Origin: Trichoplax sp. H2
Lineage: Eukaryota
Assembly (NCBI GenBank): GCA_003344405.1
Contig: NOWV01000152.1
Location: 124,001 to 184,740, forward strand
DNA length: 60,740 nt
Reading direction: 5' to 3'
Shown: positions 32,352-57,117 of the stretch, one piece after another
Layout: each line of letters begins with the position of its first letter
Numbering within the stretch: the stretch's first letter is position 1
Notes under the pieces: model-generated
What the model was told of the DNA's origin: nothing
What the model saw: only the letters and a program-made list of their open reading frames with translations
Databases searched by the model: none
Translations under genes and position numbers: made by a program

Positions 32352-32375
32352 GGCGGTGCTTGATTTTAGTATGAT

Positions 32376-32522: not shown

Positions 32523-32752
32523 CAGTACTGGACTGTACACTATATAGTCCATTTTTTTTACCTCTACAGTACCGTATTGTACAGTACAGTACTGTATGGT
32601 ACAGTCTACAGTACAGTATACAGTACTGTACTGTAGTACTGTACTGTAGAGGTAAAAGTCTTACTGTGCAGTACAGTACAGTACTGTAATGTACTGTACT
32701 GTATACTGTACTGTACTGTACAGTGAGTGCACACTGTACTGTACATTGTACA
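32523..32752. repeat. (CAGTA)n/(TACTG)n array upstream of RPL19
   Basis: Dense pentamer runs in both orientations. Confidence 0.85.
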
Positions 32753-33046
32753 ATTCCGTTGGAGATTTTCTGGACCATGAGGTTGCTGCTACCGCCAGTG
32801 CTCGAGTAAAAGCAAACAATCGATGCACAATTGCGCATGACTTTTCTAAACGGTGAGTCGACTCAGTATGTCTGCTGTGTTGGAGAGAGAGAGAAGGACG
32901 CGGAATGGCACTGCGTAGGTGTAGCAAAACCAATGTGCCAGCTCATTGGTTACTACATTCAACCCAGTATAGTGCACACTAGAGACCCTCTATCAAACTA
33001 TCCGCTATCAGGTCTTTCATGAGCTAGCCACAGCCAGGTGGGGAAG

Positions 33047-33667
33047 TGTGACAGTGTTATATACTGTATTAGCGTAGAAATATCTACGTTAGGATAATTT
33101 TGTTAGCCTATCCTTATTTAGTTAACTTCTAATTTGGATATAATGTGTTTTAATATAGCACTGGCTTTTTATGACAGTGACACATGTAGACATACTGAAA
33201 TCAATAGTTATATTGGGGAATGCGAATGATCTACTTACAGTTCGAATCATTGTGATTGCTTACTTATGGTAGATTTTAAATTATCGTGGAAATGTCTCGT
33301 GATAGGACATATCGCAAGCTGACTATTCTGTATTAGTCATCAGATGTCCATGTTCGTAAATACAGTTATCTTAATTAGGGAGCAATAGCTAAAATTAATG
33401 TCTAATTCAGTGAATGATTCCAAAGTTAATCGTACTAACTATGACTCATGAACTATTGAGGAAGAGTATACAAATGCAGTATATCGTGCAATAAAGTTAA
33501 TTCTTAAACTTAGTGTTTAAGGTAAAATACGAGGCGTTTAAATCTTTGTCTAGTCTGTTAGTAGAGCAGAAGTGTTCCTGATAGTGCTGATATCGTTCCT
33601 TGATACGTGGTTCAAGCAATTGACTTCTTGATCGTACGTTATCTTGTTACAAAGCTATTTTGTGACA
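33047..33667 (+). mobile_element. LTR-like element, family A, copy 1
   Basis: Termini TGTGACA...TGTGACA, internal AATAAA, high similarity to 59358-59913 and 45249-45416. Preceded by purine-rich GTGGGGAAG (PPT-like). No TSD. Confidence 0.7.
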
Positions 33668-35245: not shown

Positions 35246-38200
35246 TTAGTCATTAATATTACTGATCTTTTCATCTACAGTAACTGAAAGTACATTAGTT
35301 TTCCGTAACTTAGCGGTAAATGCACTAGGCACAGTTCCAGTGATATTAGCGTTGATACGAGCTGATCGTATTTTTCTTAAAAAGGTTGGACTAGTTAGTG
35401 TATAGAGACAAGGGTTCACGGCTGAATTGATAGGCAACGCGAATATAATGATAAATTGCAGTGTAATTATATTTACATCTTCCGAATATGTTAATTGTAA
35501 TAAAGTCATTATATAAAATGGTAACCAACTGATTAAATCTGTCACCAAGATTAAAAGTAGTCGAATTGCCATAGCTTTATCATTAGCAGTATTTGATTTG
35601 GCAACATTTTTATGACTCTGTTGTACTGTCAAAAATATTTGTATATATAATAGTGCTGTAATAATCCAGCAACATATGGTTACAGCAATAAAGGCTACAA
35701 GCCAGTTGGCAAACGTGGAATTTGTAAGATTACTCGCCATACAGATACTACTGTATCCATATAATCGGTTCTCTGCCGAAGCGTTGATACTGCTCATAGC
35801 TGGTACACCAACGAAGATAGAACAGAATATCCACAATGTGCACACAGTTGCTATTGCAGCTTTGGCATTAAACCTATGTCTTGAAAATGGATGGACAATA
35901 CAAAACCATCTATCGAGACTGATTAATAGCATCATAAAGACAGACATTAGGCTAGATACACAACACAGAAAGCATGCAAATGCGCAATAACCACTTGAAA
36001 GCCATGACTCCGACAATTGTGCAAATCTTCCTGTGTAGTATCCATCGGCAATAGCAATAATAAGTAAATAAATAGACATAACGAAGTCTGCTATTGCTAG
36101 ATTAGATATTAAAATGCGAGGGACATTATTGCCGTGACTTTTACTTTCAAACTTATGTAAAGCAAGAACTAGGATATTGCCGATGAAAGCGAAACAGCCC
36201 ACAATCCATATGAATAGCTGTAGAGATACGTGTGATAAAAGGTTATGGCACGTGGAGAAAGATCCTTTCTGTTCATACGGTTGACAGGTAGTAACTTTAG
36301 CAGGCACCATGCAGCATAAATAACTTCGAGTAGATAATCTAGAAAATAATAAATATGCAATGCATTCTTTAGATAAAAGTGTAAGGATCAGATGTTAGAA
36401 TTATAATCATGGGAAGATAACGTATTGAACCCGGCACTGAATGATTTCTCATAGTATCTAGATTTCGCCAGGTAGCATAAGATAGACTGTACACTAGTTG
36501 TTTTGCTACTTGATTTATACACGTTAGTTAAAGGTAAGGTCGGTCCTAAAGGACCATATTATCTAAATAGTGATAAAAATTGATATTCAGGTAATGGAAC
36601 AACAGATTAATTTATAATGCAATTGGGTTGCATAATTTAATTTTAGTGAAGATGCTAATTAACTTTGGCTTCCTACGCTCATCAGTAGTTCGAGTCGTAC
36701 ATTAGATAAGTTACAGGAAGAGTGTGGGCGGCTGTTGACTAGATATTTGTTTATTATCAAAATAATGTCGCAACCCTCTGGTAGCAAAAATACTGCGCAT
36801 CATTGTGGGTAAACTAGTCACTTAATTTATATCTGTACTTACACTGTTTGTAATGCAATAGCACCTGCAAATGAATCAGAAGTTATGAAGGTCAAGGAAT
36901 TGTCTTTCAACGACCTGAAATAATATATTACAATTAGTGTTAGCACATGATTAATATTACGACATTATTTCGTATTTCAATATTTTACAGTTTTAAAGAA
37001 TTATACAATCGTCTATAGTCAATGAATTGATAAGTTAACAAAGAGAATTAAAAAAATTACTTATACTATGCAGGTTTGTGTAAATGAGCATCTTTGATAG
37101 ATAAAAGCAATAAACTTACAGTACTGCTAAAGTTCGCAGATTTGAAAAGCAATCTGTTATTAGATTCCTAATGCCATTGCGATCTAGATATCTGATTATT
37201 TTTTATGAATGTTTTATAGAAAAACATAAGATGAATTTTCTTTAAATCAATTAAGAATGGTTTAAATATAAAAATAAGTAATAGCTGATCTGCTATCATT
37301 AACTTACAGGTTAGTTACACCAGGAAAAAGATACTGGAATTCGGTTTTGCAAATATCAACTAATGAATTGTTCGACATATTGCTATAAAATTAAAAAATA
37401 AAAAGTATCTTTTATATGTAGATTAATAGATTGCATTACAGATTTTTCAACATACAGTATACATGACATATCAAGATAATAAAATTAAATTAAAGGATAT
37501 ATTGGTCATTTTCATACACTGTTTTAAGGCCGCTGAAGGCCAGAGTGTATTTGTTGCTAAATGTCTTTAATCCATTATTGGCCATGTTTCTAACAAATTT
37601 ATATAAGTTATTACGATAAGTATTTGAGCGCAGTAAAATTATACGATTTAGTATGGATATCTGATGTGATATCTAGAAGTTCGTGATTATTGCAACCTTA
37701 GTTTTGGTTAAATGATTTTTACTTAAATAAGTTAATAACTATTTTATCGATAAAAAAGATACGATAGTAATTGCTAGTGTGAATTTATATCAGGCGTTCC
37801 GACTGATAGATAGTATGCCAGACAGTTTCTTAACTTACAAATTATTCAGTCTATAGTCATGGCTACGAAATATATCCGATGAATCCATCGTTGTAATATT
37901 ATTGTTGTTAAAGGTCCTAAAAAAATTTAGTGATATTTTCACAAAGTTTACCTGCGTGGTTGTTACCGATCCTATAATTAATAACGTTTGCTTTACTTTA
38001 TCTTTATTAATTAAGAGTACTACTCGCCTTGTAACATTATGAGTAAGCAACATTTGATAAACAAGGCCGGGCTAAGATATACAAAGCCCGGCGTACTAAT
38101 TATGATTTCAGTAGTCCGCTATTTAGTCTTCTGATCTTAGAGTTGCAATATATTGTGTTGCAATATACTGTTCGCGTATATTGTGCAGTCAGTCTAGAAT

Positions 38201-41200
38201 ATAAGATCATTTTTTGCTATATAAAGTAATGTAATCTACGCCTGCTATGGGTAGCTTTGTCTGCTTAATGCTGAAGACTAGTATCTACGGTACAATTGTA
38301 AACTAGTATGTTTAATCTAGATCTTTAGGCTGATAGCTTAATATAAGTAATTTTTGACGATATTATATTGCTGTAAAGCACTTACAATGATTGGATGGTA
38401 TTTCGTAAATTTCTGAAGGCCTCTGGAAATTCTTGAAGGTTATTACCAGCGAAGTTACTGTGTAATTGTCGAATAGGATTTAAGTTATTTCCATTTATTT
38501 GCATTATAACGTCAGCACTATAATCTTAGACTAATATAAATATCGCATTACACCCTTTCATTATTTACAATTTATAATAGTTGAAGACACACACGGATTC
38601 TTGGTGTATCTGTTCATTTGAAACTCCATCAAGTAGGCAATTAAACAGATTTCTAGAACGTAACGATTGTATTTTTTGACGGATCACCATTTTAGTCAGG
38701 TTATTATAACTAAAATCACTGAAAAAGCAATAAAAAAGATCCATTATGCTAAAGGATTTTTAATATTCATGTTAGAATGAATCCTATCTGAAAGAGATGT
38801 TGACATATCTAAGGTAGGAATGAATTTGTATTAGAGCCATTACAACTTGTGACTTCAATTTTTAGAGAACAAACTGGCATGTCTACTGAATGAAGAAATT
38901 CTCTTTCCGATTTCAAAGAAAAATTGAAGCAGTACTCCATATTAATAGTATAGAATTCGGAGATTGATCCTGTTGCTCTGTGTTACACTACAGTATTTTC
39001 TATGTCGAATTACTAAGGTAATGAAATAATTGTTCTAAACGTGTCGTGTTTGGAGTAGCTATATTAAAAATGGTTAGTTCTTATTGACAGTGAATATGCA
39101 TGTAAATCTAAACTGAAAAATAATAATAATATGTCTCTCATGATCTAACTACATACTACATGTATTCATTCTTCGATAAAACCAAATATTGATAATCTAG
39201 TCAACAGACTAACGGAGGTGTAAGGTGATATTGTAAGCGCTGAAGTATGGGTTTCTACTTAGATAATCCACAAATTAGCTAGTGTAATAACAGATAAGAA
39301 TTAAAGCATGGAATACGATATCATCAAAGTATTAACAATCCCAATACTAGTAGAAATTAATAATTGTAACGCACATAATACAAAAATATCTATCGATCTT
39401 GAAGAGTTATGGACTTACATTGATCTTAGTCTAAAACGTAGTAAATTTACTACTAGTTGAGAAATATCTTCTATGCCGTTGCCAGCTAAGTACCTAGAAT
39501 AATCAGAATATCAATAAAATCTTGCCAAATTCAATATTTGAGCCTCCTATTTAAATGGTGTTCATATTATTAAGAGAATAGTTTTGCTAGAGTAAAATTT
39601 CCTTAATTTTTTGGGCTGCTTACACTTCCTCAACTTTCATTGTATTGGTTAAAATATCTTCTGCAATAACACTTTGGTAATGAGATAGTCCATTATAGCT
39701 AAAGTCACTATAAGTATGAAAAATTGTAAAGACACCATTAATGGACTGCTTTATAAGATTAAACATTTAAAATTTGTATGATTGATAAACGGATGCAAAC
39801 TAGGTGCATTACAAAGATTTTAGTCTTCCAAAAGTTGGCCAGCAGTTAGACATGATTTTTGAAAAATTGTTTCGAGCTACATGCCTAGATAATAAATATA
39901 AGCCATTGTACAAATTAGGCATTAAACAGGGCATACCATAATACCATTCGTTGATATCTGGCTATAATGTATGAGTTGTAGCATGAATATATAGCTACTG
40001 TTCTTAACTGAAATCATTACACTGGCACAAAGTCTAGTAAGTTGCATTACGCTGGTACGATATATAAATACGGAAATTAAACAATTCTTGAGCAGCCAGT
40101 CTCAAAATTTACCAAGTTGTAAGAAAAATATTAGATTTTAAGGGCAGACAGTCAAGTTTCTGAAGCCGGTTAGAATTCAATGAACTGCAATAAATGATTA
40201 ATACTGAGCATGCAGCATCGGTAATCAACTTATTTTGACATAAGTATGGGTAAGAATCATTGAATACTTACAGCTTCGTCAAATATCGGAGGGATCTAAA
40301 GCCATCATTACTTATAGAGGCTATTGAATTTCGTTCTAAATATCTATGAATCATAATAAAATTGTAGCATTACATGTCTAAACCATTAGTACTTAAGCTA
40401 GATATATTAAATGAATATTATTAATATCTTTGTAAGAAGCACTATTTTTATCCCTACTATAGAACGATAACTTAGTAAATGGTTCCCAATATTAGCAGAT
40501 AAAATAGTTTATTATTTGAAACTATTTTTGGACATTGCAGTTATAAAATTAGACACATAAGCTGCCCAGCTGTCGACTGTAAAAATTATTCACTAACAGC
40601 TGTCCTATTGCTTAATTATAATTTCTGACATCACTAGTCGTCTCTGGTCTAGCGCCGCCATCCTACTTATGATTATCGGGAATTCACTATAGAACCTATT
40701 TTCCGATAATCTTTTAATGCAAGTTCAAAACAAATCTATCTAGGCTAGTTATAAGCTAAGAAGCAATCACGCTATGCAGCAGCAAGTGATCTAATTCATA
40801 ATATATAACATTATTAGTGAATAGAAATATTTTATACGGCTTCAATCTCATGATAGCATAAAACGACTGAGTCCTCTATAATGAAATTATGAAAACTGAC
40901 CAATTACTATCAATTTTATGTGCGTTTGAAAGCTAGTTACAACTTCAAACGTTACTTACAGTTCCTTAAGTTGTTTTAAGGTTGCAAAGATACTGTCAAT
41001 ATAAGAAAGCTTATTTCCGTTAAGATTCCTATATTACAAGAACAATAAAAGTTTAGTAATGAATGAAGGTAGCTAATAGGCTTTCGAATATTAAAATGGA
41101 AATAGAAAAACATCGTTGTAGCTTGCCACGATACGATCTATGCATATTTTAATCCTACAGTTTACAATCATTTATATTTTTAGAAACAAGTAGCATCTAT

Positions 41201-44200
41201 TTACATCTGCGTAGTCTCTTGATACAGATTAGATTTAAGGCTATTATTTTGATCTGTTCAGAAGTACATATGCTTAGTGCCAGAAAACACTTACAGGACA
41301 GCTAGTTTAGACAAGTGATTTTGAAAAATATCCTTGGTAATTATTATTTCACAATCTTCTAAAATTCTTTTAGAAAATAAATAATGGGATTAATTAAATA
41401 CTAATAGTGAAAAATTCCCGTATAGTTACAAATATTAATGTAATATTGAGAACTTCTTATATTCATTTGAATGAATTTGCTTTATAGGAATATGGCTTAC
41501 AATGTCGTAAGTGCACTCAGTCCTTTAAATGAATTATTATGCAAATTCAAATTTACATTTTCAGATAAGTCCCTACAAATTCGTAATTGTCAGCATGATT
41601 AGTTACAGATACTAAGTGCAAAGGCATACATAGAGCATTATTAAGCGATGAAAAAGTGCCATAAAGTAAATAATGATAAAAATTTACGAATAAATTAGAT
41701 CGACATAGGTATAGTATACGTACAAGGTCAACAGCCTAGTAGCGTTCAGAAATACATTATTCGATATCGATTTAATACGGTTTTGTCCGAGATCACTATA
41801 TTGGTATTAATTGTTAGCGATTGAATTGCAATACATTAACAGAAATTTTATACTAAATTTAAAATAAGAATCGGCTGTGAAGATTACAGATTTTCAATGG
41901 CAGACATAGCCTGAAATTCTGCAACAGGAATCACTTTGATGTTGTTTTTCCGTAAATTTCTACATATATGAGACATAGTTAATAAAGAACAGAAAAATCC
42001 AAATTATTATCGATTCCAACTTAATTTAATTACTACATTCTTAAGAATTAATAACTCTATAACCAATTTTTTATGGTGCGTTGATGATAAATGTACATAA
42101 AAATTTACGAAATTGTATTATTTAGCAAATCCATCAGATTACTAATCACCATGAATTTGACGATTAATTATAATGATACATTTACATAGATTTCCACTGA
42201 ATTTTGCTTTCCTTACTTTAGGAACTAAGAGCTCTTAGATCTATTAGAATCTAGGATATCTTAACTTGCTCTTAATTATCGTACTTTTTTGTAGCTACTT
42301 ACGTATGGATAATACGTTCTACTGAAATATTTAGTGTTCAAAGATTTCAATTTCATTTTAATTTTATGTATTAACGATAGTTATAAGGCTATAATATGCC
42401 AATCTTAAATGTATATTTTATATCGTAGCCGTCATATATTGATATAAATGGATTTTAAATTCAATGTTTGAAACAATAAATGATCTTACAGGGCTTTTAC
42501 GGTAGATAATCCAAGTATAAAATTTATGTTTTCTAGAGAATTTTCTTGCAATATTCTGTAAAAATGTCAAAACGAAATCATTTACAGCTGCTTTGGGTAT
42601 TTATTTTTATTAGAAATTATGTAATACGAAAGTTAGCGTAAGGAGAAAGCACGTTATTTTAAGATTCTGGAGTAATTAAATAATATAAATTATAAATTGA
42701 ATAATGCAAGATGTTACTGATTGTCATTGTAGTGTTAATATTTGATAAATAAGATGCAATAATCTACTGGTTACGTTGAAATAATGCGATTAAATGCTTA
42801 TGATGAACTGTCTAAAGCTTACAAGGTCGTTAACGAATAATTGGCCAAGGTGAAGACATTATCGTTAATTGATCTCATCCTATTTGATGACAAGTTTCTG
42901 TAAGGATAAATTATTGAAACTTATCATATAAGTAATCTGTAGTATTTTCCAGAATAATTTTTATTATGTAGTACTTTAATGCTGAAAGATTAACGACAGC
43001 AGTAACTTACAGCACTTTTAGATTAGGTAAAGATTGAAATTGTTTTGCAAATTGGCTTGTCATGCTATTAATTCGATTTTTGCTTAAATCTCTAAACGTA
43101 TTATGTTGAATAAAATTATATAATACAATTGGTAATTCCATATAACATCAACCTTAAAGGTAGTTGAGTTTGCCTCACTCACAGTTCACTTAACGATGTT
43201 ATATTTGCTAAAGGTATCCGGGAAAATTTGCTTATAACATTATCTGAAAGATTTCTAAAATTTTTTTCGATTATTGAAAAGCTGTAGCATTAATTACAAT
43301 CTATAACAGATTCTAAATGAATATGCATACTTACAAAGATTTTATATTTCTCACTTCAAATGAGTTAATGTTTTCAATAGAGTTGCTTGATAAATCACTA
43401 TTAAAAAAGAATTATTAAAAAAATAAGTTAAGAAGAATTATTAAGATAATTATTTTGCAGCACACAACATAAGATAATGTAAGATGATGTGATTGATTAA
43501 CTGAAGAGTACAAGCATGTGAGGTAAATAGGAACATTTTGCACTTTACATTACATTTTAGTGAAATTAGATTGTGAAATGGAAACGTTCCAGTTGACATT
43601 CACGGTACCGGTCTTAGATAAACCCCTAAATAGATGTTAAGGGAAAGATCGTCAAGGAAATGAATTACAGAATGTTGAGAACCAACATTATCGTAGATTA
43701 GGTAGAAAACTAAAGAATAGATAGTTATATTAACAAGCCGCTAATTGTTCAGTAAGAAATTTGTACGGCATATTTTATATTTAAGAGAAGTGCTATCATT
43801 TAAAAGCACTTGTTAAGGCATTTACACTATCATGTATGGTATGTTTTCATTTATTAATGCAGGTTTTATCCATATTGCAATAAATCATGCTGTGATACTT
43901 GATCAAGAAATAATGATATTGAAAATTTAGACAATTCAAATGACTAAGCTAACTAAAAAGAAGAAAGTTATTACTAGCCAGTTATCATGATATTAATAAA
44001 CGGGCCAAAGACTTTAGAAGATCAGATTATCGTCTAGTATTGAGATAGAAACAGAGATTTACTTATTTTATATTAATTGTAAACCGCACTGTCACGGTAC
44101 GCCGTTACTAATTAAGTAACTGTAAATTAATGAATGCTTATGAATAGATAAGATAAGGTTATGTGCTATGTTTTAATGCGCTTGTAGCTGATAATAGGAT

Positions 44201-47200
44201 GGTAGAAATGAGATAAAAATAGAAGTTGTTANNNNNNNNNNNNNNNNNNNNGCTAACTAAAAAGAAGAAAGTTATTACTAGCCAGTTATCATGATATTAA
44301 TAAACGGGCCAAAGACTTAGAAGATCAGATTATCGTCTAGTATTGAGATAGAAACAGAGATTTACTTATTTTATATTAATTGTAAACCGCACATGATGGA
44401 AATATAGTTTATTTCGGTTACTTGAACAATGATCACAATATTTCTATACAGTATCATAGTTACTATTTCAAATTAAAATTATCCTGGCTATAAATATTAG
44501 TATTTTAAGATACTTGCAAGTCTAAGTCTTTGGAATCACCCGACAAGACGGACTTTAATTTTGGCAAGCTCTTTAATGGATTTCCATCAAATTTCCTAGT
44601 TAAAGTAATTAAATGAAGTTATCAACCTAGTCGCATTAATATTGGTGCGTCAAATAAGTCTATTAATGCGATAAAAGTAATTATAAAATATTAATGCAAG
44701 GTCAAATTTTGTATTACTTACGCTGACATTAGAGAAGATACATTGGATAATAAACCATCAGATAGCTTTGAAATTTGATTCGATCGGACATTACTAGACG
44801 ATGAGTTGCGAAAGAACGATTTTGGAGCGTTAAAATATTGGTAACCATAAATTATGAGGAATAAAATATTTGATTTTCTTACAAAATGATTATTTTAATG
44901 ATGGAAAGCTACAGTACTAACAGATGTTTCAATTTAGAGAGTCCCTGGAAATGTTTTCGCGTCAGGTTAGTTAGGAGATTCTCATCTAAATTACTATAGT
45001 CAATGGCTCAATTTAGAATTAAATGGTGAATTGGAGATACAATGAATCTGTTTTATAATTTATTGTCAACCACATAAACTCAACACCAGTATGCTTAATT
45101 TCGGCAAAAACAAATTATAGACCAATTAAATTGATATTATTGAAATAATATGTTTGTAAAGTGTCTTGTCCGGAATCTCAGCTCTGTAATAAGGTTCAAT
45201 TCTAATTTGATAACTTATGTTTCTCTAANNNNNNNNNNNNNNNNNNNNCTAACTTAGTGTTTAACGTAAAATACGAGGCGTTTAAGTCTTTGTGTAGTCT
45301 GCTAGTAGAGCAAAAGTGTTTGTGATAGTGCAGATATCGTTCCTTGATACGTGGTTCAAGGAATTGACTTATTGATCGTATATTGCGTTATCTTGTTGCA
45401 AAGCTGTTTTGTGACAGAGATACAATGAATCTGTTTTATAATTTATTGTCAACCACATAAACTCAACACCAGTATGCTTAATTTCGGCAAAAACAGATTA
45501 TAGACCAATTAAATTGATATTATTGAAATAATATGTTTGTAAAGTGTCTTGTCCGGAATCTCAGCTCTGTAATAAGGTTCAATTCTAATTTGATAACTTA
45601 TGTTTCTCTAAGCTGAATAAACAAATAAACTATAGAATGATGAGGAAATTAACTTGGAAAAACATCGCATATTATATTATTAATGGTTTATCAAATGGAT
45701 TTTGGTGTTACTTATTTCAGATTCTTGTAAATTACTAATAATCCACACTATATCAGAATTCATAAAACAGATAATATACTTAATACAAGTATATACGTAA
45801 AATGTACTTGCATTGTGTAATATGTAAGATATGATTAACTCCATCCTGTAATCTACGTTATTTTGGAACTGGATGATTCCATAACTTACAGATTAGTTAC
45901 GGCTTTTACTGATAAAAAGGCTTCTTCCGAAATATGTGAAATTTTACAACCATATAAGCTCCTAAATACGAAGAAATAGGTAATAAAACGACTTATATTA
46001 AAGAATTATTTTATTTCGATCACTAAATTACGAGACTACCAAATATTAAAAGGGAGAAGAAAAATAAAGATCTGCTTGAGACTTTGAACTAAAGATGGAT
46101 AGAATTTGGCTTTCAAGTAAGATATATTTTCTTTGAGTATCTTTCTCAGACTCCATTATTACAGATATCTTCTATTGCTAACTATGAATTAGAATTGCAT
46201 TAAAATACTAAGACCTATTTTCATTAAAATTTCCTAAGAATTTGTAATTGCCTTATGGCAATAAATTAATCAATACAGCTAAAATAGATTAATTTCTAGC
46301 TATAAGATATTGATTGAAGATAGCTTAATGCTTTTAATTTACTTTGAACAATGCTATATTATGAATTACTTCAATTAAGCATTGCTTCGACATACAAAGA
46401 TGCCTTAGTTATTTCTATTATTTCCAAACCTCTGGTTTTAAAACTTACAGTATGTGTACTTGATTCAATCCCAAAAATGTTTCTTCGCTTAGATTGCGAA
46501 GCAAGTTTGTTGAGAGATCTCTAAATAAAATTAAACAATTAGAGGGATCGTAGGCTCACCGGTTTATGATATGATAATTTTAATTCATGTTGGCAAACCA
46601 ATCAATAGACTAACATTTCATACAGATTATTCAAGTCCTCAAAACTTCTATCTTCGATTGTCATCATACCGTTACTGAATAAATGTCTATATCATGGGTA
46701 TTAATAGTTATGATTGAGGTTAATTTACCGTAAAGGAGGTACGCTTATCTAAGTAATCTGTTTCAAAGATATTGATAGAACTGAAAAGGTTACTACATTT
46801 ACAAATAAACTGAAATTTAGAATTTAAACAACTTACAGTTGCAGTAGCTTATTTAATCCCTTAAATTGGCTTTGCTTGATATTTTTAAGGTTATTATTTT
46901 GTAGTTTTCTATAATTTTAAACCACAGGGAAACTTTTATTTGTTATAAAAGTTCTATTACTTCCAATACAATTACTTATAGTAGAATTAAAAATATTCTG
47001 CTAATTTTGTCGGCTATAAACCGGTCCGCGAATTAAAATTTTATAATGTAGCATACAATATTCCAAGCTCCGTCAAGTTTTGAAATGAGCCAGGCTCGAT
47101 GTCGGTCAGTTCGTTTCTATTTATATATCTGAATACCCCAAAATTTAAGTTTTCAGAAAGATTATTTAAATAAAAGCCAGATAGGTTTCATTAACTTAAA

Positions 47201-50200
47201 TTTAGTTCCTAATATCCGTTATTACTTACAAGGATTTTAAAGATTGCAAACCACTAAGGCTATGTAATCCGATACTGATAATCTTATTACCGGTTAGCTT
47301 TCTATATATAAGATCAATTTACTTATCAATTATGACAATTTACCAACGCTGTTACTTATATGAATAAGCTAATGATACCTATTAGTACTTACAGTGTCTC
47401 TAATCTTGTTAGTTTAACGAATGCTTTCTTAGGTAAGGCATTTATTAGATTTGATGTTAAATCACTATTGATATTAAATTTCATTCGTTGCGAAATAGGC
47501 GCAATCAAAATAAATTGATTATTCAATTCACGATTACTGAAAAGTTTTAGATATATAACGATTATCCACTAACAGGGATTCTAAGTTTGTTAATTCATCA
47601 AATGCATCTTCATGTATAAACCATAAATGATTTGCAGACATTTCCCTAAATTTATTCATTTGTGACAAATAACAGCAGATAGTAAGTTTTACATGACTTA
47701 TAATAATTTAATGAACACCTGAAAATTTATCGATAATTTGTTACATACAAAGTTTTTAGGTTATCCAAACCCAGAAACAAGCTTGCGTTTAATACTTCTA
47801 GATTATTGTAATTCAAATTCCTATTCGTGCAGCAAAAGTAAAATTTTCATCGCATTAAGTGAATTTTAAAGTGAATTACAAATAATTTACATCAAATTGG
47901 TTAAACTTAAGGGATTCATCATGCTACAGGTATTGCAGTAGGTCTTAGTTACTAATTGGCAATCGTATTTAATAATTGCTTCTAGTTAATGGCTTCTAAT
48001 TTTTCGATGATTATTTTAAAAATACTAGGAGTTTTAATAACTTTAATGATAATGATGAACATTAAGTACTTATTTCTATTGTTTCATTTTACCAGACAAA
48101 CTGTTACCACTATGCCTCATGATCAATAGTAGGTTTATCAATTACAGAAATCTCGACATGAATATGTAGACTATTTTTTTATTGCATACAAAAACTTATT
48201 TAATCATAACAAAATTGAAATAGCTTTTAAATTTCTAAACAACAAGTCAATATCACGAATAATTAGGAATATACTGTACACTGGTACGAATAGGATGAAA
48301 AAGTTATGTAAATGATATTTACTATTAAAGTAACTCCATTAACTAAATACTTACAGTGATTTAGCTTTGTAATTTGATTGAAACAAGTTCCTTTCAATAG
48401 TATCTATCTCGTTTGATGGCAATTGGCTGATAGGTATGAAGAATGATTAGTATTAATTTGTATATTATGAGTCGAGGGACAGTGCTACAAATATGCTAAT
48501 GAAAAATTAAAATCTTTAGATTAGAAATTATGATAAAGCAGATGACACTACTGCTGGAGAAAGTGCAATAAAGTGATGAAGCTACAAGATATCCTAAATT
48601 ATGCGATAAACTTACATAGTAGTCAATTGTTTTAAGTTGGCAAAGGTTCCACTATAAAGTTTTACTATATTGTTATTTTCTAACATTCTATAACGAAATG
48701 ATGATAATAGGCATATAATTACAATACTGCAGAACATGAATAAAACTGCCAAAATTAGTTACATTTTGCCGATTGATTGTAGTTTTTGAAAGGCTTGAGG
48801 ATGGATATCAGTTATCTTATTATTATTTAGATCTCTAATAGCAAAAATGAGATATAAATATGACCAACGAATTATTATTGCCTTATAAGATACTTATCTA
48901 TGTAAGTGTAGAAATTTCAATATTACAGAAACGTGAAACCTACAATTTGTTTATTTTAGCAATATATCCTAGCGAGTATTGTGAAATTTGCGTCATAGAG
49001 TTGGTATCCATAGAGCTATATTTTAAAGTAAGCGACAATCTTCTTAATTTTGATAAAATAACAGTAATGTTGTATAAATATAAGCTTTAATTTTCATGTT
49101 TTAGATGCTATTATTATTAAGTAAGTGGCTTTATTAAGCTAGCTTATTGTTGGTCACAGTGTAATGAGTTTACACTGTTAGGCTTCTACTGCTATTGATC
49201 CGATCGAAAGTTTCCGGTTGGATCGTTTCGATGTGATTTGTATCTAGCCTTCTATTGAATTAAGAAATATGCATGTCAACGTTAATAAGGCAATGGACGT
49301 ATTATTGCATTAAATACGAAAGATTTGCACATTTGGCTAGAATCATAATTTTGTTTCATTTACTAAACAATGGCAATGACGTCAGGTATAATGCTTTATT
49401 CTTACATCGTTATGAGGTTGCTCAAATTTTGAAAAGTTCCAGATTTTAATTCTATTATAGAATTGAACCCTAAATTGCTAATTGAAAAAATTATCGTCGT
49501 ATTATATAAACGGAGAAAAGAAAACAAAAAGGCAGAGCTTCCATATTTCGGCTAACATCGTTTGTATATATTGCAGATCGGTGAAGGCTTGAAAATGAAT
49601 TCCACTTATTGAATTCCTGTATAAATTCCTAATGTATTGATATATTGAACGGTTCTTTCATTAAGTATTAAATAGTAAAATACGTATTTAAACAAGTTAT
49701 AGTAACACTGTTTTTGTATTCTGACGTTTGAGGTAAAGTTAATGCTATAGTATTTCAAACTGTGGATGTATAGTTATAGTATATTATCTCATAGCAAAAT
49801 GCTCGATAGAATTATACACTTATCATAGAAATGCAATTATAGTTAAATGTACATAAATTTGAATATTAATTGCTTACAAGACTTTCAAATTCGGCGTATT
49901 TCTAAATGCTCCAGCCGGAATAATTTCAATGTTGTTATTGGATAAGTCTCTATAATAAGTAAGAATGCTTAATATTAGGTTAGTACTAAGGTTAAGTCAC
50001 TGCTATTATCTGTCAAAATTTTGTATTTATAAACTGATTTGTAGACAGACAGTTTGGGCATAAATCTTCAGAACATAATAAATCATAATTTTAAATTCCG
50101 ATACATGCGTAAGTAAAACTGAATGTAGTATATTTTATATGATGCACAATAGTATCGATAATTTTAAAACCTATAATAAATATGATAGTGTCAAAGTGTG

Positions 50201-53200
50201 TACTTCCAAACTAGGCATTTTTTAATCACTAGATATTTCGTGCAAAATCTTTACCTTATCTTTAATTAAATTATTTATGAAATCTGTTACTTTGGTGTAA
50301 TGTAACTAGTATTGTGATTGTAGACTGCTAGCCATGTTTAGTATAATGTACGGTAGATATTATCCTAAGATATATTTGGTAGCTATAACTATAGACTATA
50401 GTGGTATAGACTCTATGCTAGAGTACAGATGACTATATACAGCAAGGTGTTGAGTTACTAATAAGGCTATAGGTAAAAATAGAACTGTAAATCATATATT
50501 AGGATATGGTTAATTCATTGTACTTTGGTTGATGTGAATAATGTCTACATAAGTACTGTAGTCGTATCCATATTGGATTAATGATGGTCCGCAGTAGAAT
50601 AATCTGACTAAGAATAATTTAACTATGTGTAATATAAGGTAAAAGGTTGCCATGCGAATTGTAGCTGCGAATGCTACGAAAAGTATAAAAGCATGCAACT
50701 TTAGATTATTCAGTTAGTCCGTTCTAGAAGTCTTTAGTAGTAGTATTCGGCTAGAGTAGAGCTGTGTAGTTAATCTTTGTATAAGATTCAATAAAGCCCT
50801 TGTTTTTCAAAAATTTGGAATCTAATGATTGGTATATATCACATTTGGGCATAAAGTTTCAGAATGTAGCGAATTATAAGTATGAATTCCGATATATGGG
50901 TGAGTAAAACCACATGCAGTATATTGTATATGATATATAATAACATCCAAAATTTTCTTAAGCCTATAATCAGCATGATAGAATAAATTCAGATAGTTGA
51001 ATAGAAATAAACCAAAAACCAACTTAAAATTTTAGCCCTTTAAAAATTGAACTTTGCTTGATTTGCACATCTTATGAAGTAGCTTTAAATAGCAGCAGTA
51101 ATATGAGGTTGTTGTCATGAACTAGCTCAGAGTACCTGCAACTATCAGTAAGTGTTTCTCAAAAGTTGTGTTTTTATCTGGAGACTAGATGAAGTACTGC
51201 ATAATAAAGTAGTTTTAATTCTAATACCTACAGGATAGTGTTCCTTTCAAGGACGAGAGTCTACAATCGATAAAGCTAAATAGTAGACTAATTGAGAATT
51301 TACTGTAACTAGTCTTACTTTATAGATGAAATTATAGCTAGGTATTATTTGAAAATGTGATTATCAGATTAATGTATTACTCAATAAAAAATGAATAATT
51401 CTGAGCTCACAGTGTGGTAAGATTTCTTAGTTCTGCTGGCAATACTTTAGCTATGCTGTAGACGTAGTTGTTACCTAAATCCCTAGAAGTTAGAAACGAT
51501 CATTAATGTACAACATCCAATTATTTATGCGAAAATGCTTAAGGAAAAATCGAAATTTAACTCAAATGTTGGCAAAAGGAGCAGATAGTTTTTTATATCA
51601 GACTGCTATAAAATGGATTCTGGTATATATTGAACAGGTAGTATCATTGAGATAGTTTAATACACTAAATATAATGCAAAATCAGTTCATGTCATCGGCG
51701 GCTTACAGTTCTGTCAACCAGTCCTCGCTCGAATTGGTTACGTGTATGGTAAATGTCGGGATATTATTACTACCTATTTCTCTGTATGCCAATGAAACCG
51801 AAAAGTTATAGTAAATAAGGCACAAGCTGTATCTCTGGAGATATAACTTGGTACATGGGATAATAGATAGCTAACTACTTATATAGGATAAACTTACAAT
51901 TTTCCAACGTAATTTTTATATTCCAGTAGCTTTGTATAGTCAAAATCATACAGATCGTTGTTATTTAGCTTGCTAATATAAAAAATGAGAGGAAAACAAT
52001 TAGTACCAAATTTACTATTAAAACTGTTTTGGTGTAACTATTTTAATCGCTACTAATGTAGGACTATACATGAATTAGACTTTATCTCTTTATTGCAGTT
52101 ACATTGTAGTCGGTGTTGCTGAAGTACCAACATGGTAAAGCCATCCATCACTAAGAGACATCAATTCATTATTATCCAATGCTCTAATCGAAAATAAAAA
52201 TAAATTACTACATTCAATAGAATCTTACTTCTAAAGGGTGAGATCAAAACTGGAAATGCGGATAGGTACGATTAGATACTGGTATTGAAGCAATTGGATT
52301 TCAATATCAATAAAAGAGAAGTAACGAGTGTAGTTTTTCTTAATAAATAAGATAACTTCTATGGAGATAAAGTATATTTGCATAATCATGCCGTTAACAC
52401 GAATAAATTTAAGTTCAACTTTTCTAAATAGTTTTACTAGTAAAACTTGGTATCGAAAGGAACAAAGAAATGCATACTATAGTTATCCAGTATTTAGCAA
52501 TAATTGGCATAAGGCGTACCAAAACGTTATAATTGATAAATCTTATAATAAAAGATAGAGAGATGAATCAGAAATGAACTCTCGAATGCAATACATTAGA
52601 GTATTTAAATTAAGGATCTCATTGAAAATTCTTGAAGCGCTTTCATAGAACTAGTGTACAACTGCTTGAAATTTTATTATGGCCAATTTACGATTTAATA
52701 TCTGAGTACCGATAATATTTGGCTACAATAATTTTCGCCTAAAAGCTAACTCTTAAAAAGATAATTTATTGATTAGCTATAATATAAATTTTTCGTAGAT
52801 AACTTACTGTGATAGAGGATAGTGTTTTACTAACTTTAGCAAAAAAGACCGAATTTAATCCAGGTGAAGTAAGCTAGATCTCACAACAATTTACGTTAAA
52901 GTAAGACTCCTAATTTAATATTAAAGTAATGGTCTACCTGAAAAGTACTAGCTTATTCAACTGCGAAAGTTTTGAAACTACTTCCTATTAGTTGTAGTTT
53001 GAGATATTATTTAGATAATTTTATTGATAAAGAAATTTACGATTACAGTAGTATGATATGTAAAATTTTATTAACTTACAAATTGTTTAGTGATGGAAGA
53101 AATGAGCAAGAAAAGGAAGTTAAAGCGTTATAGCTTAGGATCCTGAAAGAAATTTAATTTAATATGAATCCGTTTTTGTTGTCGATTTATTGTAACAGTA

Positions 53201-56200
53201 CGATCATAGATAATCTTGGCTTTACATTGATATTAAAATTTAGATAGCTATATAATTATCTTTAGTATGATCTAGAAAATTGTACTATTTTATTAATTAT
53301 TACTTGACTACAAAATAACTTATAGCTGTAACTAAATTTTTAACGAATAGATTACTAATCAATATTTAATTTGTTATAGCTCATCGAAAATTATAAGAAA
53401 AATGCTAACTATGCGTGCTATAGTGTCACGAAAGTAATCTTCGTGACGTATACTTTATTTTTATGTTACGTTCTATAGCTGCTTATTTCTCAGAAATGTT
53501 TAACGGTCTCCTTAATTTTAATTTTAGTGGTTAACAAAATTGATATCCTTAATTTAGGATTACATAAGCTAAAATGGTAATTGCCAACCAGCTAAACTGG
53601 GTTTTATCTATCACCTCCAAGGTTGTTAAAGTTCAAAGTGCAATTCCTAAGCTTAGAGGAAATGTCTTAGTAGGATAACTTTATATGTATCTGTTAAACT
53701 ATTAATAAGCATTGATTATTTTAATACTGTTAAAGTAAATTTAATAGGATTAGACGGTATCTAATCTGTACAGATAGAATCTCTTTAGGGTATCAATTTG
53801 ACTAATTTCTAATCGACAGGTGACTTGTGTAGCTAAACCGGGTTTAGGTCCGAAACCTATATAAACGGCGAGTTCGCCGACAATAAGTTAGATTGTGATT
53901 TTCTAGTAAGTCTTGAAGGTCTCGCTGTGTTAAACCCTGTCTGCCTTGGAATACCAATTGTCTGGTATTCCAAATAATGGTAGTAAAGGATAGAAATCGC
54001 CCTCTCAATCCTTGTTGCAAGTTAGGGATATTCCTAGCTAGTAACACATATTCTCTTCAAAGTCACTATATTACAGCTCCAAAATTATTGAAACCGAATA
54101 CCGTATCTGTAGAGACTATAGTAATAACTCGTCCTCTTTAGTCTAAGCAATAAAATCTACATTTTTTAGCTGCATATCATCCAACACTGAATTAGACGAT
54201 ATCATTTATTGAATTGGCATAGATCAAATCACAGAAATATGTAATATCTATAGTAATGGCCAATGGAAAGTATATATATTACACGCAAGACCTTTAAATA
54301 CATTATTAGCTTCGTTATATTTGTCGTTCAATGTAAAGGATATATTGGCTAGAATTCAGTTATTTTAGGTACAGTACTTACAATTCCTTCAGATTGTACA
54401 AATTAGAGAAGGTGTTTTCATTGATTTTGGAGATTAAATTATAAGATAAATTGCTGAAAAATCATTTACAGTGAAAAAAAATTTTTAGTATTGTAGATTA
54501 ATTTCGGTCAGTTGCCGTCAATAAAACATCTAACGCCAAAGAAATTATTAAGTATTACATATTACTAAGCTAGAACGTTTTACTAATGTATTCGTTAATA
54601 ACAGATACTTTCCATTACATGGTTCTTAATTCTTGAGATAGTTGAAATGCAGTCGACGAAATGGTCTTTATTAAATTGTAGCTTAGATCACTAACATAAA
54701 AGATTGATCAGTTGCAATTACGATTAATCGCCTATAAAAATTCTATAAAATACAGTATGTTATATAATTTCGTTTTAATTTATGTTATCAATCAGAACAA
54801 AAATATTTTCAAAAAGCTTCTTTGCCTTACATATTTTGCACGTTCTCATAGAATGATATTTGTGATTGGCTTATATTGCTGATGTCATTATATTGCATAT
54901 ATCTAATTTGATTGCATGTAAAGAAAATTAGAGAAAAACTAGATGCTAGTCTAAATAGATTTAAAGCAATTAACTTTAGATGATTTGAGGGTCGATTTTA
55001 AGGATATACGAGATAGCATGACTTTTACTACATTTATTACAGATGATTTAAATTATTCTCGTAGTCATACATTTAATAAGGTGGGCACTGGACTAGAAAG
55101 ATGAAAAAATTTATTCCGTAGCAATCGGCTAAGATATTATATAGACGTTCTGCTTTAAGTGTGAGTTATGACATTTTTTTACAGCCATTGGAAGCTCAAT
55201 AACGTACCAGAGTAAGTACTAGGGTGCGTAAATAGCTGAAATTATTTGTTATTAAATTACTAATTAATTCTTTAGCGTGATCTCAAAGCCTAAACATATA
55301 AGTAATAAATGATTAATTTAAAATTAGATCAAATAGCTAAGAACACCGTAATATTTAAAACATTAGATCATGACCAATACGGTATTGAGTTATTGATGCT
55401 ACTGCTGGATGGGCTATCTGTAATAAGCTAGGCAAATTTTCGTTTGTATTGAGCTACCTATCTTGATACTGCTACATTAAGATTTACAACAAGGTGAAAA
55501 TAAATTTAATTTTTCATTATAGCGACATTAGTGAGTGACACTACTTATGAAACTGTGGTAAAAACCGTAATATTGTAAAAGGTTGAAGATTACAAAATTT
55601 CGCAAATTAATTTTTATGAATCAGCTATGTATCATTACTTTGAATACGCCCATTTTTGAGCGATTTTTGAAACTGTTTAAAATTGATATTAACAAAGCGG
55701 GTAATGATTCTGAGTTATTAATTTATGTCAAGACCTACATTTGAATGACATCAAAGGCACTGAAATTGCCTCCTATGGGAATACTTTTAAGTTCTACGCT
55801 CTTGCATCGAATGGTTATTTTCGTACCATAACATGTACAATTGGTAAAACACGTTGAAAAATCTGGAAATGGCCAAAAAGAGGAATAACACGTCATGTTA
55901 ATCATGACTATTACTTATGATGAGCTTGAAGCGATTAGAATAATATTTTTGCCTTGTGATCTTAATATACTACAATATAAATATTCTAATATCAGACCAT
56001 AACCAGGAACTCCTAAAAAAATTCAGCTTATTTCTTTGGAGTCCCTGTTATAACACTATGAGCATTCAAAATAGTAACAATAACGAATTTATTCCTATTG
56101 GAAAGACAAGGCCTTATTAATTTGTTTTACATGGATAAAATTTAGAAAAGCAATAGGAATCTCCAGTTACGATAAAATCTGTAGTTAAATTGGCAAGATA

Positions 56201-57117
56201 TACCTGCAGGCTTAATTTTAACAGTTCTTTAACGAATATCTTGAGTGACTAATTAGATCAGAAAAGTATTTATAGTCTATTTTCAACGCTATTTAATATT
56301 GAACATTATTTAGTAAGCGGCGTAGAAAAGTTTAATTGCAATCTTAATAAATGACGTTACCGGCAGCTTGTTTGTTGACTATCAGATTATTTATATTTTG
56401 CGATAGTGCGCTATAGTTGATTCATATTTTCTTGGTTATAGCTAAAGTATCCAATTATTTTATTCTAAAAATTTTAGCCTTAGTATTCTGGCTTATAAGT
56501 ATGTAAGATACGGAATCGTTGCTAAACTATAAGAAGTAGAATCCTACTATTGTGTGTTAACTTAAAAAATAGATCTATTTGACTACCTTGGCTGCTTATA
56601 AAAAATGATATTTTCACCAATCACACGCAAACACTGAGATAACGCTACAGGGATAGTACATCAGTTTATTTATGTTAATGTCTTCTTTCCATCAATCAAG
56701 TGCTTAGCAAATCCTTTTTTACCAGATACATTAAGTTGCTTATTTGTTAATAAATCAGAAAGAAAAGATAGCAGCTTCATCGTTTTCTGATTAATAGATA
56801 CTGAATCCGTTTTAAACATTTAAAATAGTATAAATGTGCGAGCTGAGTAAAATGAATTACTTAGCATTTACATTATATAAATTCGTTTTGTTAGTACACT
56901 AAAAAAAATGCAAATTGAAGGTTGTATCCTAATTATTTACGCGTTAATTTAATCGCTCATAAATCATTTAACTTATGTGATGATGATAAATTGCAAGGTA
57001 AAACGATAAGCAAGTAAATAAGCCCTACTTACTTAGAAACGGCAGAGAGTGGGATGTTATACACATTGTAAAGATTATTACTAGCCAATTAAAGCAGAAT
57101 AAACTTGATTTACTCAT
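35246..57117 (-). CDS. Giant leucine-rich-repeat class-A GPCR (LGR-like; 7TM and hinge resemble type-C RXFP/GRL101 receptors, no LDLa seen); ~51 coding exons, roughly 1600 aa
   Basis: Signal-peptide exon 57033-57117 (MSKSSLFCFNWLVIIFTMCI...) and Cys-rich LRRNT exon ~55739-55863 (CFTNCTCYGTKITIRC). About 48 phase-2 exons between 36843 and 54902 each encode one xLxxNxL/I...F..L..L..L repeat, e.g. 36843-36914, 40272-40343, 48355-48426, 54382-54453. Terminal exon 35246-36338 encodes the hinge YLCC..CQP..STCHNLL and the 7TM (IGNILV, NLAIAD, SLDRW, TDLISWLP, LPINSAVNPCLY). Exon count is by eye and may be off by a few. Confidence 0.88.
44090..44231. mobile_element. Start of an LTR-like insertion (TGTCAC...) truncated by an assembly gap
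   Basis: Flank 43948-44089 is repeated at 44252-44392 without this sequence. The insertion begins TGTCACGG. Confidence 0.55.
45249..45416 (+). mobile_element. 3' part of a family-A LTR-like element, truncated by an assembly gap
   Basis: Matches ~33505-33667 and ~59742-59913. Ends TGTGACA directly before GAGAT, and the empty site is seen at 45031-45038. Confidence 0.75.
50296..50843 (+). mobile_element. Solo LTR, family B, with perfect 5-bp TSD TTTGG
   Basis: TTTGG|TGTAAT...ATCACA|TTTGG. TATAAAA at ~50684 followed by AATAAA at ~50790. The first ~335 bp are repeated at 60176-60512. Confidence 0.85.

Follow-up and report, generated by a model that had tools for sequence, protein, structure and literature searches.

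LGRs are rhodopsin-class GPCRs with a leucine-rich-repeat (LRR) ectodomain. In a 2022 review (PMC9545775), types A and C were described with seven to nine LRRs and type B with 14 to 18, and Trichoplax adhaerens was credited with 46 LGRs, of which 41 were restricted to placozoans and unusually rich in LRRs; 34 LRRs were given there for Tadh-LGR-15. In the databases, these placozoan LGRs are exemplified by the 'GRL101-like' proteins P0006, P0007, P0004 and P0001 from Trichoplax sp. H2; others among the placozoan relatives are named 'Relaxin receptor 2'. The gene considered here resembles the placozoan-specific receptors in its LRR-only ectodomain with very many repeats, in the lack of an LDLa module and in the combination of a short cysteine hinge with a class A 7TM domain (42-50 % identical). 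Its nearest named relatives were Trichoplax "GRL101-like" LGRs.

The gene lies in a 60,740-nucleotide stretch of Trichoplax sp. H2 DNA, called the window below (~30 % G+C). Judged from sequence, it very probably (about 0.82) represents one intact gene for an orphan LGR-type membrane receptor of 1695 residues, similar to hormone receptors and belonging to a lineage-specific placozoan expansion of long-LRR LGRs. On the minus strand, 54 exons could be chained from 57117 to 35246 into 5088 nt, or 1695 codons, in which the only stop was the terminal one. The chain consists of one signal-peptide exon, one LRRNT exon, 51 cassettes and one hinge+7TM exon; all of these parts had been announced in the initial annotation and were recovered at their minus-strand positions. 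That annotation counted about 48 one-LRR exons: their uniform 2-2 phase and prevailing length of 72 nt (35 of 51) were confirmed, while the number had to be raised to 51.

Exon 1 (57033..57117) carries the start codon (57117) and a signal peptide with a hydrophobic core, and ends in phase 1 at donor GTAAGT. Exon 2 (55739..55862; phase 1 in, phase 2 out) encodes the LRRNT cysteine cap (CxxxCxC...C), after which the first LRR begins. Among the cassettes that follow, numbers 1 (54831..54902, phase 2-2, with a weak LRR score), 2 (54619..54690) and 3 (54382..54453) are 72 nt long and number 4 (53080..53142) is 63 nt long. Irregular repeats are encoded by cassettes 5 (81 nt, 52103..52183), 6 (75 nt, 51898..51972) and 7 (75 nt, 51707..51781). 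Cassettes 8 (51411..51482), 9 (49878..49949), 10 (49557..49628), 11 (49406..49477), 13 (48944..49015) and 14 (48763..48834) measure 72 nt, and cassette 12 (49174..49251) measures 78 nt. The longest intron contains a copy of a dispersed repeat (50296..50631) which is 94 % identical to 60176-60512.

A collinear alignment with P0006 starts at cassette 15 (48616..48687) and includes, all of 72 nt like the latter, cassettes 16 (48355..48426), 17 (47749..47820), 18 (47574..47645), 19 (47393..47464), 20 (47230..47301), 21 (47057..47128), 22 (46837..46908), 23 (46615..46686), 24 (46449..46520), 25 (45890..45961), 26 (44922..44993) and 27 (44722..44793); an assembly gap at 45.2 kb separates cassettes 25 and 26. 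Cassette 28 (44518..44595), an irregular repeat of 78 nt with the only GC donor (GCAAGT), and cassette 29 (43554..43625), of 72 nt with a poor LRR consensus and the first exon downstream of a second gap at 44.2 kb, were retained in the model because both align collinearly with P0006. The alignment further comprises cassettes 30 (63 nt, 43335..43397), 31 (72 nt, 43183..43254), 32 (81 nt, 43011..43091), 33 (75 nt, 42823..42897), 34 (66 nt, 42490..42555), 35 (72 nt, 41888..41959), 36 (72 nt, 41724..41795), 38 (72 nt, 41295..41366), 39 (69 nt, 40960..41028), 40 (72 nt, 40272..40343), 42 (72 nt, 39813..39884), 43 (84 nt, 39624..39707) and 44 (75 nt, 39419..39493). Cassettes 37 (72 nt, 41501..41572) and 41 (72 nt, 40113..40184, with the weakest donor, GTAAAT) fall within two 24-residue stretches missing from P0006. 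Cassette 45 (38569..38718), 150 nt long, encodes one LRR together with an irregular insert containing cysteine, which is also present at this place in Trichoplax relatives; irregular repeats and such an insert near the membrane are shared with P0006. The array ends with cassettes 46 (72 nt, 38386..38457), 47 (78 nt, 37839..37916), 48 (72 nt, 37518..37589), 49 (75 nt, 37308..37382), 50 (72 nt, 37120..37191) and 51 (72 nt, 36843..36914), the latter being the final repeat before the hinge; these six again align with P0006. The terminal exon (35246..36338) encodes a cysteine hinge (CC...C...C), the 7TM domain (7tm_1, with DRW and NPxxY-type motifs), a C-terminal tail and the stop codon.

All 51 cassettes have a length divisible by three and are in phase 2-2; 35 measure 72 nt, five 75 nt, three 78 nt, two 63 nt and two 81 nt, and lengths of 66, 69, 84 and 150 nt occur once each. 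Predicted acceptors were AG at all 53 positions and predicted donors GT at 52 of 53, the exception being the GC at 44518. At 50 of the 53 predicted junctions, the split codon specified L, I, V or F. Within the interval, the minus strand offers 42 AG-72 nt-GT windows that are open in the cassette frame, compared with 10 for the plus strand. An LRR core matrix matched the minus strand 63 times, with 51 matches falling in the 35-55 kb bins, and the plus strand five times; since it was trained on 33 of the gene's own exons, only the contrast of strand and position is valid as a control. This exon pattern is well beyond chance. A poor fit to the LRR consensus was noticed in cassettes 5-7, 12, 28, 29, 43 and 45. 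Introns had a median length of 151 nt, and eleven of 469-1461 nt (among them introns of 1461, 1239, 896, 896 and 892 nt) may conceal missed exons.

The last exon matched Pfam 7tm_1 (E 2.8e-29) over its full length, from profile position 1 to 260 of 260. With this exon as query, the best nine named matches were all Trichoplax LGR-like proteins with 42-50 % identity, and the best non-placozoan matches reached at most 34 %. A sequence search of the PDB ranked RXFP1 first (122.7 bits), followed by TSHR (105.2), LHCGR (95.9) and FSHR (93.7), the next receptor class scoring 52.8. The RXFP1 alignment extends into the hinge. The scores of 7TM and hinge support the type-C-like character given to this receptor initially; four hinge cysteines were invariant across a 16-protein family alignment. 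The LDLa motif, also declared absent at that stage, did not occur in the window in any of its six reading frames. Relative P0004, modelled with AlphaFold2 (mean pLDDT 78.7), showed 29 regularly spaced LRR strands ahead of a seven-helix bundle; its best structural match was full-length LGR4, and those of its LRR part were TLR13, TLR8 and TLR3.

Whether the array belongs to a single gene was considered with respect to the two assembly gaps, where the initial annotation had foreseen a possible split. Both gaps consist of 20 N and are intronic. At the 44.2 kb gap (44232..44251), the segment 43948-44089 is repeated at 44252-44392, both copies being exon-free; at the 45.2 kb gap (45229..45248), the segment 45034-45228 is repeated at 45417-45611, with a copy of a dispersed repeat nearby (45251-45416). 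P0006 aligned collinearly with model residues 412-1680 (423/1287 identities, 33 %, E 9e-168), showing no gap of at least six residues across the exons flanking either assembly gap, and P0006, P0007, P0004 and P0005 were all collinear over these exons. As P0006 runs straight across both gaps, the region was considered one gene.

A merger of two neighbouring genes appears unlikely. The upstream gene would then code for a secreted LRR protein comprising the signal peptide, the LRRNT and the initial 15 to 25 cassettes, and the downstream one for a shorter LGR, the two being separated within a long intron or at an assembly gap. This reading could draw on the long introns, assembly gaps and dispersed repeat copies that break the array, on database protein P0055, whose two 7tm_1 domains denote a gene prediction fusing tandem LGRs, and on model residues 1-411 (exons 1 to 16), which are covered by no collinear homolog. 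These residues are joined to the remainder only by strand, phase and open frame and by the lack of an intervening terminal or initial exon. Against the merger, phase 2-2 and the open frame hold through all 51 cassettes. On the minus strand of the gene interval neither a second signal peptide, nor a second LRRNT, nor an LRRCT-like motif was found, the only LRRNT-like motif between 36.3 and 58.5 kb being that of exon 2; none of the long introns accommodates an alternative-phase candidate exon whose splice scores are acceptable. Moreover, the 13 closest relatives examined all begin inside the LRR array without an N-terminal cap, for which reason the missing coverage was attributed to truncated database models and not to a gene boundary. 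A recognisable signal peptide and LRRNT thus distinguish this gene from all 13.

A pseudogene or decaying copy, or an assembly artefact inflating the number of repeats, is scarcely credible. The two gaps with their local duplications lie inside the gene and no database protein exceeded 75 % identity, but the 1695-codon frame is free of internal stops in DNA of such low G+C content, the 7tm_1 match is full-length and the duplicated segments at the gaps hold no exon. The absence of any near-identical cassette pair rules out both haplotype duplication and repeat collapse. The best database match was 75 % identical over a fragment of 263 residues only, so the gene, or its placozoan lineage, is probably without a full model among database proteins.

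With ~51 LRRs, a number based on our chained exons and on counts of simple patterns, the receptor is far above the canonical LGR types, as was asserted at first; as an isolated oddity it can no longer be regarded, given the 41 LRR-rich placozoan-specific LGRs reported in PMC9545775. By comparison, Tadh-LGR-15 is listed there with fewer repeats, and the longest database relatives have ~29-37 by our own counts. Among type C receptors (RXFP1, RXFP2 and the GRL101 type), RXFP1 is close to this gene in 7TM and hinge, its hinge cysteines and the residues following them being alignable; type C differs in having ~9 LRRs and the LDLa module that is lacking here. Type B (human LGR4, LGR5 and LGR6) also displays an LRR-only ectodomain with an N-terminal cap and one-LRR exons, but has fewer repeats and another hinge; no type B sequence was found among the named or solved sequence matches scoring above type A and C receptors.

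Very long 7TM relatives (1.8-3.3 thousand residues) owe their length to CUB, LDLa, lectin and discoidin modules: of 18 scanned, 17 contained LDLa, and LRR_8 stretches numbered at most three. Proteins P0193 (1515 aa), P0260 (1531 aa), P0198 and P0243, which are only 25-30 % identical to the model, have ~35-40 LRRs followed by a cysteine hinge and 7tm_1, but start with a non-LRR domain of 200-270 residues that is missing here; this gene is hence not alone among GPCRs in bearing a very long LRR array. The strongest non-GPCR matches to the P0006 ectodomain were chaoptin, artichoke and Toll/TLR, whose LRR arrays are comparable in length to the present one but end in a GPI anchor, or in a single transmembrane segment plus TIR, with no GPCR domain. 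This likeness goes no further than the generic LRR fold.

The repeats are old and mutually diverged, in agreement with the first description. Among the 72-nt cassettes (n = 35), mean nucleotide identity was 0.40 (maximum 0.57) and mean amino-acid identity 0.22, the latter value being found at each cassette spacing from 1 to 6, so that neighbours were no closer than distant ones. Self-blastn of the window yielded 25 repeat pairs, none of which was an exon-to-exon match.

Because all 51 cassettes share the same phase, any skip or duplication would preserve the frame, and it had been proposed that the cassettes serve diversification, with combinatorial skipping or exon exchange between paralogs generating sensory or immune isoforms. 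This seems quite improbable. Besides the common phase, the proposal would be favoured by paralogs differing by gaps about one repeat long, by human LGR5 variants without exon 5 or without exon 8, both single LRR exons (PMC4891500 and PMC3203099), and by the absence of canonical Toll-like receptors from placozoans (PMC6321704). Human LGR5 is itself composed of 18 exons, LRRs being encoded by exons 1-17 with one LRR per exon (PMC4891500). Symmetric one-LRR exons are hence not special to this receptor, and uniform phase with one LRR per exon is no mark of a special mechanism. The independence of cassette likeness from spacing, the low maximal identity and the self-blastn without exon pairs also argue against the proposal. 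No intronic 11-mer or its complement was common to more introns than in 20 shuffles, and splice scores, from matrices whose training set was 48 of the gene's own exons, formed one continuous spread with no weak class, two low donor scores aside. Spare LRR cassettes or LGR paralogs are likewise missing, no other LRR or 7TM gene having been found in the 60.7 kb window.

The preferred reading thus remains that of a single orphan LGR. By analogy with known LGRs, a protein or peptide ligand outside the cell would dock on the concave side of the LRR solenoid; the hinge would relay the signal to the 7TM bundle, which would couple to a G protein. The DRW and NPxxY-type motifs are in place. The array may have grown by ancient duplication of single-LRR exons, and the uniform intron phase would allow one exon to be gained or lost without a change of frame, so that paralogs would differ by whole repeats. 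Against nine Trichoplax relatives, 13 gaps of at least 18 residues were counted, nine of which measured 22-28 residues, about one repeat; these whole-repeat gaps could equally reflect exons skipped in automatic gene models. The gene is a new and unusually long member of a kind of LGR whose multiplication in placozoans had been reported before.

The window was AT-rich, the receptor interval (57117..35246, minus strand) having a G+C content of about 27-31 %. The terminal ~1.1 kb of this interval consisted of a single minus-strand open frame, upstream of which lay dozens of short open segments between AG and GT. With their first base completing a codon, these AG/GT-bounded segments encoded the LRR pattern x-L-x-x-N-x-(L/I). 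The clearest exons were used to derive a position matrix and splice matrices, and every long intron was then searched for extra exons. The resulting predicted splice model comprised 54 exons and a coding sequence of 5088 nt (1695 codons), in which signal peptide, cysteine cap and LRR ectodomain shared one open frame with the 7TM exon. The chain started with a signal-peptide exon carrying the start codon (57117..57033, minus strand; GTAAGT donor, phase 1), followed by an LRRNT exon (55862..55739, minus strand) with a CxxxCxC...C motif, entered in phase 1 and left in phase 2. Between this exon and the terminal one were 51 LRR cassette exons on the same strand, all of phase 2-2, and the hinge, the 7TM domain (Pfam 7tm_1) and the stop codon were located on a single exon (36338..35246, minus strand).

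Cassettes of 72 nt predominated (35 out of 51), the others being of 75 (five), 78 (three), 63 (two), 81 (two), and 66, 69, 84 and 150 nt (one each). All 53 acceptors were AG, while donors were GT in 52 cases and GC in one. For 50 of the 53 junctions, the split codon encoded L, I, V or F, and this residue corresponded to the conserved hydrophobic position of the LRR. The model displayed a periodicity of 24 residues and a median intron of 151 nt. Only three additional exons were accepted from the long-intron search, which was run in any phase with the chain-trained splice matrices: 44595-44518 (with the GC donor) and 43625-43554, both poorly LRR-like, and 38718-38569. All three were on the minus strand and collinear with P0006, a 'GRL101-like' protein of Trichoplax sp. 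H2. A further candidate, 36777-36715, was dropped because the last LRR joins the hinge directly in relatives. The giant LRR-GPCR proposed in the initial annotation was hence recovered with its uniform cassette phase, its one-LRR-per-exon build and its hinge and 7TM on one exon. The number of cassettes was raised from about 48 to 51, and no in-frame stop was encountered in the 1695 codons.

Strand comparisons served as controls for chance. Within the receptor interval, the minus strand contained 42 AG-72 nt-GT windows without a stop in the cassette frame, and the plus strand 10. The LRR core matrix matched the minus strand 63 times (51 within 35-55 kb) and the plus strand five times; as this matrix was trained on receptor exons, only the contrast in strand and position is informative. 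From the base composition, we infer that a stop-free frame of 1695 codons cannot be due to chance in such DNA.

Three 20-N assembly gaps were present in the window, two of them inside the receptor (44232-44251 and 45229-45248), and the initial annotation had considered that transcripts might split there into separate genes. Each of these two gaps was flanked by a near-identical (99 %), exon-free duplication: segment 43948-44089 was repeated at 44252-44392, and segment 45034-45228 at 45417-45611. These duplications look like artefacts of scaffold joining (overlapping contig ends or haplotype differences). The dispersed-repeat copy found just past the 45.2 kb gap, with further copies at 33.5 and 59.8 kb, was also devoid of exons. 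P0006 (1270 aa, annotated as partial) aligned with model residues 412-1680 (423/1287 identities, E 9e-168), unbroken through the exons that flank each of the two gaps and including the poorly LRR-like cassettes 44595-44518 and 43625-43554. Three other Trichoplax relatives (P0007, P0004 and P0005) likewise covered the gap region. The idea that the gaps hide or duplicate exons was rejected, the duplicated segments being exon-free and the P0006 alignment continuous. Between 36.3 and 58.5 kb, the minus strand displayed a single LRRNT-like motif and no LRRCT-like motif. Given the unbroken alignment and this lone N-terminal motif, the interval is read, from sequence comparison, as one gene spanning both gaps.

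Residues 1-411 were the weakest part of the model, no homolog covering them collinearly. All 13 closest database relatives (P0001-P0009, P0041, P0042, P0045 and P0056) began within an LRR array, most of them partway through a repeat, and in none did the first 200 residues combine a signal peptide with an LRRNT-like motif. Their models evidently lack the true N terminus and are uninformative about a gene boundary at the receptor. Another relative, P0055, contained two 7tm_1 domains and looks like a fusion of two tandem genes. Towards the end made up of small exons, automatic gene models of this family do not seem reliable.

The presence of a rhodopsin-family 7TM domain was corroborated by Pfam, as the terminal exon matched the whole 7tm_1 profile (positions 1-260 of 260; E 2.8e-29; 102.8 bits for a cut-off of 30.5). 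It carried DRW and NPxxY-type motifs and opened with a CC...C...C hinge, which aligned with the hinge of RXFP1; the RXFP1 alignment itself began within this cysteine hinge, and four hinge cysteines were invariant in an alignment of 16 family members. Among solved structures, the best scores were obtained with RXFP1 (122.7 bits), TSHR (105.2), LHCGR (95.9) and FSHR (93.7), the next class A receptors reaching at most 52.8 bits (somatostatin receptor). By these scores, the 7TM domain resembled known LGRs more closely than it did other class A receptors. The initial annotation's description of a type-C-like 7TM without LDLa was fair, although a type C affinity of hinge and 7TM is tentative, RXFP1 leading type A by a small margin in these pairwise scores (only 17 bits over TSHR). 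No LDLa-type cysteine/acidic motif was found in six frames of the window, which includes 3.6 kb upstream of the start codon, and in the model the LRRNT came directly after the signal peptide. Two traits of type C LGRs were thus missing, namely the N-terminal LDLa and an array of ~7-10 LRRs, replaced here by 51 cassettes.

The nine best named matches to the 7TM exon were all from Trichoplax (T. adhaerens and Trichoplax sp. H2), with 42-50 % identity and lengths of 691-1270 aa, and were named 'GRL101-like' or 'Relaxin receptor 2' in their sources. Matches from other phyla, for instance bivalve GRL101-like proteins, did not exceed 34 % identity. When 1.84 billion representative proteins were searched exhaustively, 5151 matches at E <=1e-3 were obtained, headed by a fragment of 263 residues (75 % identity), with the same Trichoplax proteins next. 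The receptor thus combined a 7TM domain, a capped LRR ectodomain (according to predicted splicing), a cysteine hinge and an LGR-like 7TM score, as expected of an LGR class A GPCR. On sequence grounds, it would be a new and unusually long member of the known placozoan LGR expansion.

According to a 2022 review (PMC9545775), T. adhaerens possesses 46 LGRs, compared with eight in humans. Type B is absent, types A and C account for two and three, respectively, and the other 41 are placozoan-specific, with exceptionally many LRRs and hinge regions of their own. The same review gives 7-9 LRRs for types A and C and 14-18 for type B, and depicts Tadh-LGR-15 with 34 LRRs, versus about 51 in the present receptor. 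Since this expansion is reported there, the kind of receptor was already described, and the locus adds to it an array of greater length and an N terminus that looks complete. Nothing on the exon structure of placozoan LGRs or on more than 34 LRRs was found beyond PMC9545775 in the literature searched, and a preprint on placozoan GPCRs (10.1101/2025.04.18.649542) did not mention LGRs.

Database proteins were compared for array length. A uniform LRR pattern was counted 59 times in the receptor model, 37 in P0006, 36 in P0007 and 35 in P0004, the count of 59 coming from a permissive pattern that is also triggered by the membrane helices. Four database LRR-GPCRs of 1221-1531 aa resembled the receptor in their very long arrays (~35-40 LRRs) but differed in their N-terminal domain and displayed only 25-30 % identity to the model. 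The longest 7TM relatives (1.8-3.3 thousand residues) were rejected as counterparts, because they owe their length to CUB, LDLa, lectin and discoidin modules, unlike the receptor; LDLa was present in 17 of the 18 scanned. Neither LDLa nor any other such module was found in the window.

By analogy with the LGR family, the concave face of the LRR solenoid would bind an extracellular protein or peptide, and the hinge would pass the signal to the 7TM bundle, with its DRW and NPxxY-type motifs, and on to a G protein. As 51 repeats of ~24 residues would exceed a single flat horseshoe, the array may bend or break into arcs, the likely points being the irregular cassettes 5-7, 28-29, 43 and 45 (150 nt), as numbered from the N-terminal side. 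Such bending is suggested by a low-confidence break in the AlphaFold2 model of P0004 (mean pLDDT 78.7), in which two blocks with a total of 29 regularly spaced LRR strands preceded a seven-helix bundle. The top structural match of this model was full-length LGR4, followed by TLR ectodomains.

Pfam searches of open frames identified the neighbouring genes as a class III aminotransferase (2212-2789, minus strand), a DM10 and EF-hand (EFHC-like) protein (8561-11173, plus), a phosphatidylserine synthase (14093-14464, minus), a ribosomal protein with L5 domains (20143-20952, plus), a CAP/cysteine-rich secretory protein (25461-26291, plus) and ribosomal protein L19e (30364-30878, minus). They look ordinary and single-copy, and none was related to the receptor. 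The two best database matches of the CAP-domain frame reached only 57-61 % identity, with no close Trichoplax match, which suggests a placozoan-like genome whose proteins are sparsely covered by the database. A 220-residue open frame at 32203-32862 (minus strand) displayed no Pfam match and overlapped imperfect repeats at 32.6-32.7 kb. These repeats (17698-17964 and 32565-32748, also 6639-6671), ~80-85 % identical and found in both orientations, are probably low-complexity or satellite-like. Two dispersed repeat families, with copies 88-94 % identical, were located at 33041-33667, 59352-59913 and 45251-45416, and at 50296-50631 and 60176-60512. One copy adjoined the 45.2 kb gap and another was inside the longest receptor intron; these repeats probably represent fragments of transposons and are likely to have caused the assembly breaks. 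With the LRR matrix and Pfam on ORFs, neither a second LGR nor spare LRR cassettes were detected elsewhere in the window; the Pfam scan covered 37 of the 48 ORFs of at least 75 aa, the other 11 being overlapping or antisense frames, the 7TM exon and two short frames within the gene.

In vertebrate glycoprotein-hormone-receptor genes, each repeat occupies one exon and all are of a single phase. Human LGR5 shares the gene organisation of the receptor (PMC4891500, PMC3203099): it has 18 exons, of which exons 1-17 encode the LRRs, and variants without exon 5 or exon 8 occur. An explicit statement on the intron phase of LGR repeat exons was not found in the literature searched. The initial annotation rightly pointed out that uniform phase preserves the frame for any single-cassette change, which probably explains both the growth of the array and the differences by whole repeats among paralogs. 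Compared with nine Trichoplax relatives, 13 gaps of at least 18 residues were counted, of which nine were 22-28 residues long, although some of these gaps may reflect exons that gene prediction had missed.

The initial annotation went further and proposed that such cassettes could diversify the receptor by combinatorial splicing or by exon exchange between paralogs. Dscam-type genes contain clusters of mutually similar, mutually exclusive exons with common intronic pairing elements. In lamprey VLR-type loci, spare LRR cassettes flank a germline gene that is incomplete. Here, cassettes had only the LRR consensus in common: mean amino-acid identity was 0.22 at each spacing from one to six, adjacent cassettes were no more similar than distant ones, and blastn within the window did not detect any cassette pair. 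No intronic 11-mers or their complements were shared beyond shuffled controls, a weak test limited to exact words. The receptor thus differs from the Dscam type in lacking clusters of similar exons and, within this weak test, intronic elements above controls, and from the VLR type in having a complete germline gene, with no LRR cassettes outside it in the window. As cassette identity, blastn, intronic words and the rest of the window revealed no feature marking a diversity generator, diversification by splicing or exon exchange is of low probability, and the initial interpretation was borne out in part.

A wider reading would combine the longest LRR ectodomain on any GPCR, an under-counted set of placozoan LGRs, frame-neutral exon turnover and a role as pattern-recognition or chemosensory receptors; taken together, this is improbable. 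If true, predictors would drop tiny cassette exons and the expansion would be systematically under-counted (compare the N-terminal cap, absent from all 13 closest models), gain and loss of single-LRR exons would have produced dozens of receptors differing in their binding surfaces, and these would serve pattern recognition or chemosensation in an animal without neurons and without canonical Toll-like receptors. The receptor reveals neither a new receptor kind nor a new mechanism; it is a clean example of array growth in which each repeat is carried by its own exon of uniform phase. A complete-looking model with signal peptide, N-terminal cap and 51 repeats offers a template for re-annotating the family, the database models of which all look N-terminally truncated, as well as a concrete construct for a ligand search.
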